From an uncultured Planctomycetia bacterium (GTDB lineage: Bacteria > Planctomycetota > MHYJ01 > WSZJ01), in the NCBI GenBank assembly GCA_964590435.1, contig CAZPWT010000008.1:83880-147879 (forward strand): DNA of 64,000 nucleotides, in the 5' to 3' direction. The first letter of the stretch is position 1. The number at the start of each line of letters is the position of its first letter. Below the pieces are notes generated by a model. That model was not told the origin of the DNA, did no database searches, and saw nothing but the letters and a program-made list of their open reading frames with translations. Positions 25,131 to 30,598 of this stretch are shown in pieces. Position numbers and translations under genes: made by a program.

Positions 25131-26735
25131 ATGCGACTGCGCCTCGCCCTCCTGCTCTTCCTCGCCTCCACGACCGCCGCCGAGGAGCCGTTGCGCGACC
25201 GCTGGATCTACGTCTCGCGCAACCTCTGGGTCGACAAGAACGTCGACGAGGTGGAAGCGCTGTTCCGGCGCGCGGCGGCGGCGGGCTACAACGGCGTGCT
25301 GCTGTCGGACTCGAAGTTCTCGCGGCTGGAGGACATGGACAAGCGGTACTTCGCGAACGTCGACCGCCTGAAGAAGGTGGCGGCGGAGCTGAAGCTGGAG
25401 ATCGTGCCGGCGGTGTTCCCGATCGGGTACTCCGAGGGACTGCTGTCGCGAGACCCCGATCTCGCCGAGGGGCTGCCGGTGCGGGACGCGCTGTTCGTGG
25501 TAAAGAACGGCGAGGCGCGGGTGGAAGCGGACCCGGCCCTGGCGCTGAAGGGCGGCGACATGGCCGACCTGAAGGCCTGGGACTGGAAGGACGAGACGGT
25601 CGTGGCGGAAGACGGCGAGGCGAGAGTGACGGACCCGAAGGGAAAGAACGCGCGGATCGTGCAGAAGGTCAAGGTCGCGCCGTGGCGCCAGTACCACATC
25701 TCGGTGCGCGTGAAGACCGAGAACTTCCGCGGCGAGCCGCGCGTCGCCGTGCTCGCGGGCGAGCGGTCGCTCAACCACGCAAACCTCGGCGCCAAGCCGA
25801 CGCAGGACTGGACGACGCACCACGTCGTCTTCAACTCGCTCGACGCGACCGAAGTCGGCGTCTACCTCGGCGCCTGGGGCGCGGATACCGGCTCGCTCTG
25901 GTGGGACGACGCGACGATCGAGGAAGCGGGCCCGGTGAATCTCGTCCGCCGCGAAGGCGCCCCGCTCATCGTCACCGCCGACGGCGGCCTCCCCCTCGCC
26001 GAGGGCAAGGACTTCGAGCCGCTCACCGACCCGAAGATGGGCACGGTCCCCTGGCGCGGCGGCTTCGAGGTCTGGCACGAGCCCCCCGCCCTCAAGACCA
26101 GCCTCAAGGAAGGCACCCGCCTCCGCGTCTCGTACTTCCACGCCCTCACCGTCCACGACGGCCAGGTCATGGTCTGCCCTTCAGAGCCCAAAACCCTCGA
26201 TCTCCTCCGCGACCAGATGAAGCGCGTCCACGCCGCGTTCGGAGCGAAGGCCTACTTCATGTCCCACGACGAGATCCGCGTCATGGGCTGGGACGACTCC
26301 TGCGCCAAGCGCGGCCTCGACGCCGGCGCGATCCTCGCGGACAACGTGAAGGCCTGCACGAAGATCGTCCGCGACGTCGCCCCCGGCGCCCGCATTTTCG
26401 TCTGGAGCGACATGTTCGACCCGCACCACAACGCCCACGCGAACTACTACCTCGTGAAGGGCGACCTCAAGGGCTCCTGGGAGGGCCTCGACAAGGACGT
26501 GATCGTCGCCTGCTGGTATTTCGACAAGCGCGCCGAGAGTCTCAAGTTCTTCGCCGACCGCGGGCACAAGACGCTCATCGCCGGCTACTACGACGCGAAC
26601 CCGAAGCAGATCCTGAAATGGCTGGAGGCGGGCAAGGCCGCCGGCGGAGTCGAAGGCGCGATGTACACGACGTGGGAGAACAAGTACGAGGACATGGAGG
26701 AGTTCGGGGCGCTGCTCGGTAAGTCGGGTCGGTAG
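25131..26735 (+). CDS. Secreted hypothetical protein, possibly glycoside-hydrolase-like
   Basis: Signal peptide MRLRLALLLFLASTTAA; 534 aa; function inferred only from context next to hydrolases. Confidence 0.55.
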   Translation: MRLRLALLLFLASTTAAEEPLRDRWIYVSRNLWVDKNVDEVEALFRRAAAAGYNGVLLSDSKFSRLEDMDKRYFANVDRLKKVAAELKLEIVPAVFPIGYSEGLLSRDPDLAEGLPVRDALFVVKNGEARVEADPALALKGGDMADLKAWDWKDETVVAEDGEARVTDPKGKNARIVQKVKVAPWRQYHISVRVKTENFRGEPRVAVLAGERSLNHANLGAKPTQDWTTHHVVFNSLDATEVGVYLGAWGADTGSLWWDDATIEEAGPVNLVRREGAPLIVTADGGLPLAEGKDFEPLTDPKMGTVPWRGGFEVWHEPPALKTSLKEGTRLRVSYFHALTVHDGQVMVCPSEPKTLDLLRDQMKRVHAAFGAKAYFMSHDEIRVMGWDDSCAKRGLDAGAILADNVKACTKIVRDVAPGARIFVWSDMFDPHHNAHANYYLVKGDLKGSWEGLDKDVIVACWYFDKRAESLKFFADRGHKTLIAGYYDANPKQILKWLEAGKAAGGVEGAMYTTWENKYEDMEEFGALLGKSGR

Positions 26736-26776
26736 CTGGTGGTCAGTGGTTGGTGGTCAGTGGTAACGACGACGAA

Positions 26777-26805
26777 AACGGCCACGAGGAGCCCTCGTGG
26801 CCGTT
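26777..26805. terminator. Hairpin, probable bidirectional intrinsic terminator
   Basis: Perfect 13-bp stem AACGGCCACGAGG / CCTCGTGGCCGTT with 3-nt loop, T-rich flank on both strands, at a convergent gene junction. Confidence 0.5.
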
Positions 26806-26862
26806 CTTGTCTCGCGTTTGGATCGGGCCTTGCCCGTCCACCAACCACCGACCACCGACTCC

Positions 26863-27162
26863 CTACCCCTTTTCCGGCCCTCTCGACCCGAGCTCGCGAT
26901 CGATCTCGAGCAGCGCCACGGGATCGTTCTTGATGAGATTGAACTTCGCGACAATGTCCCTCGCCGACTTCTCTTCCTCCACCTGCTCCGTCAGGAACCA
27001 CTGCAGCTCGACCATCAGCGAGAGCGCCTTTTCCTTCTGCGCCAGCTCGTACAGCGCGTCGATCCGCTTCGAAACGCTCAGTTCCTGCGCCAGCGCCGCT
27101 TCGAAGACTTCCTGCATCCCCTTGAACTTCACCTTCGGCTCCGGGATCGCGTTCAGCTTCAC
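26863..27162 (-). pseudogene. Truncated 3-prime copy of the ferritin gene (about 100 C-terminal codons, diverged)
   Basis: About 95% identical at DNA level to 28123..28435 (ferritin C-terminus) with a few amino-acid substitutions; lacks the N-terminal half of ferritin. Confidence 0.6.
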
Positions 27163-27175
27163 GCCGCCGCCGCGG

Positions 27176-27871
27176 TTATGGTCTGAGTTGCCTCTGGCAC
27201 CATCGGAGCGTCTCCCTCAGGCTCTCCACATAGTGGTCCGAGTCAGGAGACTCCGCCCGCGGGCAAGTCTCCGAGGTCTCCCATTTCAGGTCCTTCAGAA
27301 TCTCCTCGAGAACCCCGCAATACAGCCCGATCCAGTCCGGGTCCTTCCACGCATCCAGTACTTCGAGCGCCTTCTCCACCAGGACATCGAGCAACTGCCG
27401 GTGCCGGTCCACATCCACGACGAAGCCTTCAACCATCAGGCATGTCGTGCACTCGTGGCCGAATTGGTCGATCTGGATGTCCGTCATCGGAATCTCGAAG
27501 TTGCGGGCCCTACCGACGTAGTCGAGCAGGAAGACTTCGAACCGAGCAGGTCCTTCCTTTCGATTCCCCAGAAGCCAAAGCATGTGGGTACAGACGCGCT
27601 GGATATGGAAGATCTCCGAGCCTTCATCGAGAGCTTCGATCAGGCGGCGCCCGGACTTGAAATCCACGTCGTTCTCGCCCTGCAACTGCGGCTCGAGCGC
27701 AGCCAGCTCCAGCAGAAGCCTCTGAATTCGCTGGTCTTGTTCGAACTGGAAGTGCGTTTCGCGATAGTCGCCCCACGCATCGGACTTCGTAGGAGTGCGC
27801 TGAATGTCCGCGCAACCGGCAGATACCAGCGAGATTGCAACCAGGAACAGTCGTGTTGAGCACACGTTCAT
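27176..27871 (-). CDS. Hypothetical lipoprotein encoded in a low-GC island
   Basis: MNVCSTRLFLVAISLVSAGC lipobox; perfect AAGGAGG Shine-Dalgarno 6 nt before ATG; GC visibly lower than flanking DNA. Confidence 0.65.
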   Translation of the reverse strand: MNVCSTRLFLVAISLVSAGCADIQRTPTKSDAWGDYRETHFQFEQDQRIQRLLLELAALEPQLQGENDVDFKSGRRLIEALDEGSEIFHIQRVCTHMLWLLGNRKEGPARFEVFLLDYVGRARNFEIPMTDIQIDQFGHECTTCLMVEGFVVDVDRHRQLLDVLVEKALEVLDAWKDPDWIGLYCGVLEEILKDLKWETSETCPRAESPDSDHYVESLRETLRWCQRQLRP

Positions 27872-28033
27872 CCGTTGCCTCCTTGGGAACTCCCACAGTG
27901 GGAGAGACCGCCAAGTAGCCCGTTAGTGGCGTTCGACGCGGAGGGCGCCGCAAGTACCTCCTCCGGCGTCAGCCGCTCGATTCGGATCTGCCGGGACATG
28001 TCTAGTCTCCCCACGCACCGCCGAACAGAGAAA

Positions 28034-28064
28034 CGGCCACGAGGTTCACTCGTGGCCGAATTTT
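28034..28064. terminator. Hairpin terminator downstream of ferritin
   Basis: 10-bp stem CGGCCACGAG / CTCGTGGCCG with 5-nt loop, followed by AATTTT on plus and TTTCTCTGTT on minus. Confidence 0.5.
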
Positions 28065-28116
28065 CCGTGCGTGTTGTCTTGGCCTTTCCTGGCCGCCGGC
28101 CGCTGGCAACTCGCCA

Positions 28117-29205
28117 TTACCCCTTCTCCGGCCCTCTCGACCCGAGCTCGCGATCGATCTCGAGCAGCGCCACGGGATCGTTCTTGATGAGATTGAACTT
28201 CGCGACGATGTCCCGCGCCTGCTTCTCCTCTTCCACCTGCTCCGTCAGGAACCACTGCAGCTCGACCATGAGCGAGAAGGCCTTCTCCTTCTGGGCCAGC
28301 TCGTACAGCGCGTCGATCCGCTTCGAAACGCTCAGCTCCTGCGCCAGCGCCGCCTCGAAGACCTCCTGCATGCTCTTGAACTTCACCTTCGGCTCCGGGA
28401 TCGCGTTCAGCTTCACGCCGCCTCCACGGTTCTGGAGGAAGTCGAGCAGCTTCATGGCGTGCCCGTATTCCTCGGAGCTCTGGATCCGGAGCCACTTCGC
28501 AAATCCGTGAAAGTGGTTCGCGGAGCAGTGGGCGGACATCGCGAGGTAGGTGTAGGAAGAGACGAGCTCGTTGTTGATCTGCTCGTTGACGGCTTCGAGG
28601 ACGTTGGCGGTGACCATGGCGGCTCCTTTGGAGTGGGAGGGTCGGGACGGCGGCGCATTCTGCGTATGGAGGGCGGGAAGCGCAACTCCTTGTAGCGTGG
28701 AGATTTCTGGCCAGCCGTAGCCGGCGTGGGGGAGGTCCTGGGAACCGAAGCGGGAGGACTTCTCGCCGGCGGGGCGGCCGCCGAGGGACTCGTAGAAGCG
28801 GCGGGAGGGGGCGTTGTCGCGGAGGACCCAGAGGACCATGGCGCGGTGGCCGGCGGCAGCCAGGTCGCGGGCGAGGGCGGCGACGAGGGCGCTTCCCAGG
28901 CCTTTTCCTGCAAAGGCTTTGCGGATGTAAATCGCGTACAGCTCGGCGTCGTATTCGGTGTCGAGATCGCGGTTGGGGCCCCCCGTCGCGAACCCCACGA
29001 CTTTGCCGCGCACCTCCGCCACGAACGTGATCGTCCCGGGCGTCGCCAGCCGCTGGCGGCGGCGCTTCTCGAAGTCCGCGTACGACAGCGATTTCAGGTA
29101 AGCGGCGTCGACGATGCCGCGGTAGGCGGTGCGCCACGTGTCGACGTGGACGCGGGCGATCGCCGGCGCGTCGGATTCGGTCGCGGGTCGGATGCGCGGG
29201 GTCAT
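28117..29205 (-). CDS. GNAT N-acetyltransferase and ferritin in one uninterrupted frame (ferritin domain 28117..28617 has its own ATG and RBS)
   Basis: GNAT N-terminus (MTPRIRPATESDAPAIARVHVDTW..GKGLGSALVAAL..RFYESLGG), Pro/Ala linker, then ferritin (VLEAVNEQINNELVSSYTYLAMSAHC..EEYGHAMKLLDFL) with no stop between; AAGGAG 5 nt before the internal ferritin ATG; GNAT ATG overlaps upstream stop. Confidence 0.6.
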   Translation of the reverse strand: MTPRIRPATESDAPAIARVHVDTWRTAYRGIVDAAYLKSLSYADFEKRRRQRLATPGTITFVAEVRGKVVGFATGGPNRDLDTEYDAELYAIYIRKAFAGKGLGSALVAALARDLAAAGHRAMVLWVLRDNAPSRRFYESLGGRPAGEKSSRFGSQDLPHAGYGWPEISTLQGVALPALHTQNAPPSRPSHSKGAAMVTANVLEAVNEQINNELVSSYTYLAMSAHCSANHFHGFAKWLRIQSSEEYGHAMKLLDFLQNRGGGVKLNAIPEPKVKFKSMQEVFEAALAQELSVSKRIDALYELAQKEKAFSLMVELQWFLTEQVEEEKQARDIVAKFNLIKNDPVALLEIDRELGSRGPEKG

Positions 29206-30197
29206 GCGGGGACGGCGCTTCGACTGAGGAAGCGTCCCATCGCGAGGAACCACGGGCAAAGGAGGACGGTGAGGAGGGCGGTGGTGACCTTGATGGCGGC
29301 GAGGGAGTCGGCGAGGCCGGCGGCGGTCATGGCGAAGCCGGTGAGCCAGAGGGCCCAGGTCCAGGCGCGGAGCCAGCGCGGGAGGGCGGGGGTGGCGAGC
29401 GTGAGGACGACGCCGGCGACGCAATAGAGGCCGTTGGCGAAGATCGTGGTGATGAGGCCGAGGGCATGGGGCCAGTGGCGCGGGACTTCGGAAGTGCCGA
29501 ACGCGAGGACCGCTTCGCAGCCGAGGTCGAACGTGGCACCGATGCAGGCGAGCGCGAAGGCGGCGCGACTGGCGCGGGACGACGGGAGGAAGGAGCCCCA
29601 CCAGCCGTAGAACGCGATGAGGGTGAGTGCGCCGAGCATCCAGAGGCCCCAGCTGGCGGCCCAGCGGGGCTCGACGCCCTGGAACCACACGAACCTTTCG
29701 CGGCCGAGGGGGTCCTTCTCGAAGTACGGCGCGATCACGAACGCCATCGCGAACGCCGCGGCCGTGTGGACGACCGCGGCGGCCCACGGCGCGGCGCGGC
29801 GGATCGACGTCCCGATGTCGTGTCCGTCGAGCAGCCGCAGACCGAATGGCAGGAAGCGCGCGAGGGACGTGAACACGGGGACGACCAGCAGCAGCGGGGA
29901 CGCGCCGCGGGAGACGAGAAGCGCCCAGAGCCCCGCGTCGGCGGCGGACGCGACGAACCCGGCGAGCGCCGCGACGCCGTGCCACTTCGGGCGGAACGCG
30001 GCGAGACAGAAAACCGCCGCCAGGGAGACATGGAAGCCGCCGTAAACGCGCGCCCCAAGCTCGAGCCCGGCGTCGCGCCAAAGCAGCTGCCGCACGCCCT
30101 CGAACGCCAGGATCGCCACCAGGGCAAGACAGGCGCTGATCGCGGCCGCATGCGCGAACACGAACGCATGGCATTCCTCGCGCCGCGGATGGCTCAT
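29202..30197 (-). CDS. Multi-pass membrane protein, hypothetical
   Basis: Several hydrophobic helices; stop overlaps GNAT start (ATGA); start chosen at internal Met (ORF extends to 30320). Confidence 0.55.
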   Translation of the reverse strand: MSHPRREECHAFVFAHAAAISACLALVAILAFEGVRQLLWRDAGLELGARVYGGFHVSLAAVFCLAAFRPKWHGVAALAGFVASAADAGLWALLVSRGASPLLLVVPVFTSLARFLPFGLRLLDGHDIGTSIRRAAPWAAAVVHTAAAFAMAFVIAPYFEKDPLGRERFVWFQGVEPRWAASWGLWMLGALTLIAFYGWWGSFLPSSRASRAAFALACIGATFDLGCEAVLAFGTSEVPRHWPHALGLITTIFANGLYCVAGVVLTLATPALPRWLRAWTWALWLTGFAMTAAGLADSLAAIKVTTALLTVLLCPWFLAMGRFLSRSAVPA

Positions 30198-30598
30198 GGC
30201 CGGGCGGCTACTTCCGCCCTTCCTTCCGCTTTGCGAACTCCCCCGAGCGCGCGACTGCCTCGTCGAGCGCCTCTGCCCGGAGGACGTTTCCGCCGCGCCG
30301 TTCGCAGAGGGGCGCGGCATGTGCGGTGCGCATAGAAGTTCCTCAAGGAGTCCTGGGCCGGCGACGATAGCACGGGCACAAACGCCTCCACAAAGTCGAG
30401 CTGCATGTCTCGTTCCACGGGGTCCTTCGCGGAAGCGCGAGAGGCGGACCGGGGGGTCGAGCGGTCGGGGCGAGCGCAGCGACGCCGCCCGCCGTTCGGC
30501 GGCGTCGCGCAGCGAGGTCCGACCGCCGACCCCCCGGTTCGCCTCTCGCGCTTCCGGTGGATTGACATGCGCGCCCCCGGTCCCTCAGACTCCGCCGC

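Follow-up and report, generated by a model that had tools for sequence, protein, structure and literature searches.

Prokaryotic non-haem ferritins (PF00210) are known from solved structures of A. fulgidus (1s3q/3kx9), P. furiosus (2jd6), T. maritima (1vlg) and E. coli FtnA (1eum), and the GNAT acetyltransferases have a solved member in the probable acetyltransferase TTK003001606 of T. thermophilus (PDB 1wk4/2cy2). In engineered display fusions, such as RSV F-ferritin (8w3g) and the MtrE-ferritin chimera (5u1b), a foreign domain is carried on a flexible tether at the N-terminus of a bacterial-type ferritin, a topology that these entries show to be compatible with folding and assembly. Two adjacent genes of the same strand can also be joined by loss of a stop codon, the spacer between them becoming a linker (the "Rosetta-stone" type of fusion). 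Here we present an analysis of a locus in a 64,000-nucleotide (nt) stretch of an uncultured Planctomycetia bacterium (contig CAZPWT010000008.1), hereafter the window, where the gene for a GNAT acetyltransferase continues into a ferritin gene within a single open reading frame (ORF). We consider it likely that this is a young gene fusion, which arose when the ancestor of a single shallow clade of Planctomycetia lost the stop codon of its GNAT gene, and that it gives a tolerated 40-kDa chain alongside independently made ferritin.

Both halves of the chain have close stand-alone counterparts. The C-terminal 166 amino acids (aa) match the non-haem ferritins end to end, and the GNAT matches TTK003001606 over residues 4-165 and the stand-alone GNATs of its clade (P0230-P0234, P0083) over its full length, at 59-74% identity. 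Where the stand-alone GNATs stop, after ...GWPDVA.LA.RLST at 173-177 aa, the window copy has Gln and continues; unlike an ordinary non-haem ferritin gene, that of the window has no in-frame stop upstream, so that a second, N-terminally extended product is encoded. The engineered display fusions are man-made and have every subunit decorated, whereas the window fusion is natural and has an undecorated ferritin co-encoded from an internal start. Compared with stop-loss fusions in general, the downstream gene keeps a promoter-like element, a Shine-Dalgarno sequence and a start codon inside the new ORF.

The fused frame runs for 362 codons up to a TAA and is free of internal stops, and Pfam placed both domains in the same chain, GNAT PF00583 at residues 46-142 (67 bits) and ferritin PF00210 at residues 204-339 (130.8 bits). 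The preliminary description of this DNA, made from its letters without database searches, had stated that the acetyltransferase reads into ferritin without a stop, and this is confirmed. It had also assigned to the ferritin ATG a ribosome-binding site of its own, AAGGAG, which is indeed present at a 5-nt spacing (Table 1). Conservation of this start and its ribosome-binding site in relatives agrees with the further proposal that the sequence would encode both a 40-kDa fusion and a free ferritin, for which the predicted masses are 40.0 and 18.8 kDa. In an AlphaFold2 model of the fused chain, residues 1-171 and 200-355 formed confident domains, the predicted local distance difference test score (pLDDT) was below 50 for residues 176-195, and the predicted template modelling score (pTM) was 0.51; the low scores of the joining segment and of the model as a whole suggest that the GNAT and ferritin domains have no fixed mutual orientation. 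Predicted junction-spanning peptides of the fused frame include FGSQDLPHAGYGWPEISTLQGVALPALHTQNAPPSR and GAAMVTANVLEAVNEQ..., whereas free ferritin would begin with (M)VTANVLEAV...

The junction is shared with related genomes. A homologue search returned the two-domain architecture in three 90% clusters, represented by the window protein, P0002 (368 aa, 86% identical) and P0003 (372 aa, 85%). Junction haplotypes were collected from the homologue contigs, from further cluster members and from a scan of GTDB genomes, and the fused frame was found in five distinct ones (the window, the L001 type, L008, L009 and the L005 type). No fewer than 17 independent short-read assemblies, made from different runs, carry this in-frame junction, and so do three GenBank Planctomycetia metagenome-assembled genomes (MAGs). 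The L009 protein, MCC6738328.1 (372 aa), is named "GNAT family N-acetyltransferase" by NCBI.

The origin of the fused frame could be read from orthologous loci, which were identified by synteny (mutS, one or more variable genes, GNAT, ferritin and a convergent 530-aa gene). In four outgroups from the Planctomycetota (L010, L011, L183 and L184) the GNAT ends in ...GWPDVA.LA.RLST (or LLSS, or ALAP) followed by TGA, and a separate ferritin of 165-166 aa lies downstream. The TGA of L010 and L011 aligns without gaps with codon 172 of the window, and that of L183 and L184 occupies the same place, just upstream of a conserved block in the spacer. From stop to ferritin ATG the spacers measure 76 nt in L010, 75 nt in L011, 74 nt in L183 and 88 nt in L184, placing the ferritin in frames +1, 0, +2 and +1, respectively, relative to the GNAT. 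In L011 the spacer has no stop and is in frame as it stands, so that one change abolishing the TGA would be enough to produce the same fusion. Further stand-alone GNATs, of 173-177 aa and 57-74% identity, also end in ...RLST/LLSS.

Distance trees of the 530-aa neighbour, of the GNAT, of the ferritin and of GNAT and ferritin joined placed the four outgroups outside an inner clade without a GNAT stop, whose topology is (window,(L001,L008)) + ((L005,L009),L006). Nested within this clade, as sister to the fused L005/L009, are L006/L007, where the GNAT stop is also missing and one extra nucleotide is present in the former 5' untranslated region (5'UTR); there the GNAT frame runs 35 nt into a 166-aa ferritin that is called as a gene of its own. 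The predicted GNATs of L006 (1309-1971) and L007 (1318-1980) carry a 48-aa tail after "AYAWP", of which the last ~30 residues, encoded past the insertion, are unlike those of the fused sequences. A stop between the two genes in orthologous loci, which the preliminary description had named as a ground for refuting its reading, is found in four lineages, and in L006/L007 the two genes lie in different frames. The most parsimonious history is that one stop loss made the fusion and one later frame-breaking insertion undid it. The fusion is confined to one shallow clade of the Planctomycetia and is not retained beyond close relatives.

What is now the linker proved to be the former intergenic region. 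Its length, given as ~30 aa in the preliminary description, had to be corrected to 24 codons once the ancestral GNAT end was mapped. These codons do not evolve as coding sequence. Their guanine plus cytosine content (GC) by codon position is 0.75/0.67/0.67, as against a third-position GC (GC3) of 0.88 in the GNAT and 0.92 in the ferritin (P<=0.005), there is no third-position excess among the substitutions between fused haplotypes (junction sequences judged by eye, not counted), and the positions that are conserved belong to DNA blocks common to the non-coding spacers. Along the junction the order is a conserved 13-nt block, the hexamer CA(G/A)AAT, a freely diverging stretch of ~25 nt and the ribosome-binding site. 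In the four outgroups, whose spacers are non-coding, the 13-nt block reads GTTGCCCTTT(C/T)CG, and CA(G/A)AAT follows TTGC(G/C)C at a 17-nt spacing in 10/10 junction haplotypes; because the blocks are equally conserved in lineages where the region is untranslated, the constraint acts on the DNA and not on the peptide. The spacing and the TTG, A2 and T6 positions resemble a sigma-70 -35/-10 pair. No terminator was found between the domains, and an Rfam scan of 26500-30500 gave no match. The linker is thus best described as the old control region of the ferritin, that is, putative regulatory DNA rather than a designed linker. The notion of a protein designed as GNAT, Pro/Ala-rich linker and ferritin is accordingly not supported, since the linker is a translated former region of putative promoter and 5'UTR with no coding signature, and is predicted to be disordered. 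The -10-like hexamer also lies inside a short palindrome (28652-28666, minus strand), ACGCA-GAA-TGCGC in the window and GCGCA-AAA-TGCGC in L001, L006 and L008, which is degenerate in the outgroups and could be an operator for a regulator.

Openness of the spacer needs no special explanation. The window has 68% GC, 77% of its six-frame 24-codon windows are stop-free, and 68% of shuffles of the spacer are open; the preliminary description had cautioned that a linker frame can open by chance in a high-GC genome. Moreover, all three frames of the window spacer are open, and no stop occurs in any of the three frames in the eight junction haplotypes tested, two of which are non-coding. The openness of the spacer therefore carries no information on function; it is no more than chance gives, whereas the reproducibility of the in-frame junction in relatives exceeds chance.

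The sequence of events that we favor starts from a GNAT gene ending in TGA, followed by a spacer of 74-88 nt and a separate ferritin gene. This ancestral spacer would have held the promoter-like blocks of the ferritin, TTGC(G/C)C-17 nt-CA(G/A)AAT, along with its ribosome-binding site, and would have been stop-free in every frame. After loss of the TGA, ribosomes starting at the GNAT ATG would meet no stop and read through 24 former intergenic codons into the ferritin, giving the 40.0-kDa chain, while those starting at the conserved AAGGAG/ATG would make the ordinary 18.8-kDa ferritin, from the long transcript or from a shorter one begun at the internal promoter-like element. The ferritin is probably also made from a transcript of its own, and every GNAT chain would carry a ferritin unless processed, because the GNAT has no stop of its own. 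The N-terminus of ferritin faces the outside of the 24-mer cage. Normal cages could tolerate a minority of subunits that bear a GNAT, whether built into them or lying beside them, and by analogy with the engineered N-terminal fusions in the PDB, together with the outward-facing N-termini, it is plausible that some cages would be mixed and display a few GNAT domains on the outside.

The fusion is real and recent, and probably an accident; we rate a tolerated accident above a selected fusion. A sequencing or assembly artefact, such as an indel or a miscalled stop, is scarcely credible: although MAGs contain other long "ferritin" ORFs with Arg-rich junk of the kind that frame errors produce, the in-frame junction recurs across five haplotypes, the independent assemblies and the three GenBank MAGs, so that a sequencing error, also raised in the preliminary description, was rejected. 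An adaptive fusion, with the GNAT attached to the outside of the ferritin cage and the reading frame kept by selection, deserves more attention, even if we regard it as unlikely. Its suggested roles are a co-localisation of acetylation and iron storage, or a multimeric enzyme scaffold, in which the internal-start ferritin would dilute the decorated subunits to a workable ratio. Display at the ferritin N-terminus is structurally feasible, and the model predicts two confidently folded domains with a flexible tether between them. Furthermore, several observations weigh against a mere accident. The five fused haplotypes, from three sublineages, keep both the frame and an identical 72-nt spacer over a synonymous divergence (dS) of about 0.4-0.55, whereas no two of the four unfused lineages have the same spacer length, and this constancy could reflect selection on the reading frame. 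The GNAT is under purifying selection while obligatorily fused, with ratios of non-synonymous to synonymous substitution (dN/dS) of 0.15-0.34 among the fused lineages, similar to those of the ferritin and of the neighbour gene, as against 0.44-0.6 for the GNAT of L006, where the fusion is broken. The former values mark it as a working gene, the latter suggest relaxed constraint or decay, and the pattern is compatible with the fusion mattering. The regulatory side of the account also has its difficulties: a sigma-70 consensus scan does not call TTGCGC-17-CAGAAT (7/12 matches), and the conserved blocks are missing upstream of four ferritin orthologues that are more distant (L179-L182) and thus give no independent confirmation; it is conservation that points to a promoter role. 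Finally, it is from sequence that we infer the existence of the 40-kDa product and of the internal promoter, and the proportion in which the two products are made.

Several lines of evidence nevertheless speak against selection for the fused protein. The fusion is found only in the shallow clade, the wider clade having a stop, and one nested lineage lost it and kept both genes. The linker is pre-existing regulatory DNA with neither codon bias nor the substitution pattern of a coding region, and the absence of stops from all three frames, even where the spacer is non-coding, means that no selection is needed to keep the frame open. Within the former intergenic part just one indel was seen, which disrupted the frame, and none that would preserve it; by a rough estimate from branch lengths, not a computed value, about 1.5-2 indels would be expected in the clade where one was observed, which is compatible with neutrality. 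A more specific proposal, that the stop loss was fixed because it was useful, giving cages with a few outward GNAT domains and a ratio of decorated to plain subunits set by the promoter and ribosome-binding site within the linker, is more doubtful still; if true, the locus would encode a natural enzyme-displaying ferritin nanocage. It might also be that the fusion is nominal, the disordered tether being cleaved or GNAT translation largely aborting there, so that the cell contains separate GNAT and ferritin. The predicted disorder of residues 176-195 and a codon usage atypical for the genome in this segment would suit such an outcome, but no protease site, frameshift signal, RNA structure or Rfam element was found and there is no terminator between the domains, and this purely speculative proposal is quite improbable. 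The young fusion by stop-codon loss, tolerated beside independently made ferritin, remains the account that we prefer. The features on which it is built are collected in Table 1.

Table 1. Features of the GNAT-ferritin locus, in window coordinates
Feature	Position	Strand	Evidence or remark
Fused GNAT-ferritin ORF	29205..28117	-	GNAT domain, 24-codon spacer and non-haem ferritin; both domains complete
ATGA overlap	29202..29205	-	Stop of upstream 372-aa membrane-protein ORF (29202..30320) overlaps GNAT start codon 29205..29203
GNAT acetyltransferase domain, codons 1-171	28693..29205	-	Pfam, PDB sequence match, AlphaFold2, dN/dS
Codon 172, CAA (Gln)	28690..28692	-	Position of the GNAT TGA in L010, L011 (gapless alignment), L183 and L184
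24-codon spacer GVALPALHTQNAPPSRPSHSKGAA	28618..28689	-	Homologue of the outgroups' intergenic spacers, 74-88 nt
Conserved 13-nt block GTTGCGCTTCCCG, including -35-like TTGCGC (28685..28680)	28674..28686	-	Invariant in six stop-less haplotypes
-10-like hexamer CAGAAT	28657..28662	-	17 nt downstream of TTGCGC
Shine-Dalgarno sequence AAGGAG	28623..28628	-	5 nt before ferritin ATG; AAAGGAG conserved in inner clade, GGGGGGA in outgroups
Ferritin coding sequence, 166 aa + TAA	28117..28617	-	ATG 28617..28615 = Met197 of the long ORF
Intrinsic-terminator-like hairpin with T-rich tail	28034..28058	-	3' of ferritin; same hairpin in L001 and L008

The ferritin half is a regular member of its family. PF00210 scored 130.8 bits against a cutoff of 24.5, and a PDB sequence search aligned residues 196-357 with residues 2-163 of the solved archaeal/bacterial ferritins (3kx9/1s3q) at an E-value of about 1e-38. 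Since this match begins at the N-terminus of the solved ferritins, Met197 is the native ferritin N-terminus, and JGI gene calls give ferritins of 166 aa. AlphaFold2 predicted helices at 200-229, 233-259, 279-306, 310-340 and 344-355 with a pLDDT of about 90, that is, a four-helix bundle with a short fifth helix, as expected of the five-helix architecture of non-haem ferritins. Counted from Met197, the residues E17, Y24, E49, E50, H53, E94, E126, Q127, E129 and E130 are all present. Of these, E17, Y24, E50, H53, E94, Q127 and E130 (E. coli FtnA numbering) are the ferroxidase ligands, and all ferroxidase and site-C positions are filled. The cutoff of the NCBIfam equivalog NF007638 (E. coli-type non-haem ferritin) was not reached (99.7 vs 178 bits), and the ferritin half is a family member but not an equivalog of the E. 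coli-type protein. Among the ferritin homologues, P0010, P0011, P0030, P0032, P0034 and P0024 (loci L180 and L181; high-GC MAGs) are called at 279-465 aa, with Arg-rich non-homologous extensions, and at L180 the true C-terminus of the upstream gene is visible in another frame, which points to assembly frame errors and not to real fusions. The first five were considered as candidate GNAT fusions and rejected; they are not GNAT fusions, and P0010 at least looks like a MAG frame error.

The GNAT half is also complete. PF00583 scored 67 bits against a cutoff of 20.7, PF08445, PF13508, PF13673 and PF13302 were above their cutoffs as well, and residues 4-165 aligned with residues 2-167 of the 174-aa T. 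thermophilus acetyltransferase 1wk4 (E-value 2.7e-33; PDB sequence search). The AlphaFold2 model predicts the whole GNAT fold, with beta-sheet and helices, at a pLDDT of 85-97 over residues 1-171. Acetyl-CoA motif A of the GNATs is Q/R-x-x-G-x-G/A; residues 99-104 of the window protein are A-G-K-G-L-G, which keeps the G-x-G and has Ala in place of Q/R, and more distant homologues have Q-G-R-G-I-G. As to a named subfamily (RimI, PAT/ArsN1, MshD, PaiA or AAC(6')), all NCBIfam matches were far below their cutoffs, the best being ArsN1a at 42 vs 170 bits. The overlap of the GNAT start codon with the stop of the upstream ORF (Table 1) suggests translational coupling of the two genes. The GNAT frame is open upstream as far as 30174, for 323 further codons before the real ATG, so that the total ORF comes to 685 aa (28117-30174, minus strand). 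The extra stretch runs across the 372-aa membrane-protein gene in another frame; it is an over-extension of the high-GC kind and may mislead gene callers.

The gene directly upstream of the GNAT is not conserved within the clade. In the window it is the 372-aa multi-pass ORF (29202-30320, minus strand), for which no family match was obtained; the L001 type has an extra 379-aa gene and a homologue of the 372-aa ORF, and a 377-aa gene, not detectably similar to that ORF, occupies the position in the L005/L006/L009 type. A functional link through this upstream gene was considered and rejected, the gene not being conserved in the clade.

On the other side of the fused ORF, the window contains a second, partial ferritin. 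The 3' end of the ferritin (28118-28417) is repeated in direct orientation at 26864-27163, as a 300-nt copy that is 94% identical with 18 differences, 3 of them non-synonymous; the copy has its own terminator-like hairpin (26779-26805), and 1254 nt separate it from the real ferritin 3' end. In the interval is a 231-aa ORF (27176-27871) with a GC of 58.5% vs 67.9% and a lipoprotein-like signal (LVSAGC), which had no match in Pfam, NCBIfam, PHROGs or plasmid searches. The ~1.25-kb insert with this ORF is missing from all relatives, and the copy joined to the full ferritin is the native-like one. The insert looks like DNA from a related organism that integrated by recombination in the ferritin 3' end or its terminator. 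A 31-nt inverted repeat (26726-26756 / 26838-26868, 84% complementary), with TGGT(C/T)(A/G)G-like units, flanks the second terminator hairpin, and L008 has similar TGGCCAC repeats at the matching place.

Outside this clade of the Planctomycetota no GNAT-ferritin adjacency was found, 156 other loci with GNAT homologues having no ferritin nearby, and a metagenome scan added no close relatives. Among 1.84 billion representative proteins, ten matches in two or three stretches within the best 150 were checked with Pfam, and none combined GNAT with ferritin (0/10), all being GNAT-GNAT or GNAT with another domain; remote fusions ranking below the best 150 would be missed. The titles and abstracts of the best-ranked papers on ferritin, GNAT and fusion held nothing relevant.

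Taken as a whole, both domains are ordinary members of their families, and the locus is a lineage-specific case of a known phenomenon, fusion by stop loss, and not a new kind of system. Because it is shallow and has already been reversed once, the fusion should not be read as evidence of a functional link between GNAT and ferritin. It does provide a clean, datable example of the birth of a bacterial gene fusion, in which one stop was lost in a GC-rich genome, a stop-free spacer happened to be in frame, and a putative promoter/5'UTR became a linker predicted to be disordered. It also calls for caution in domain-fusion ("Rosetta-stone") inference and in annotation, where the NCBI name of the 372-aa orthologue gives no hint of the complete ferritin within it. 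Should the 40-kDa chain be produced and assemble, the engineered ferritin display particles would have a counterpart in nature.

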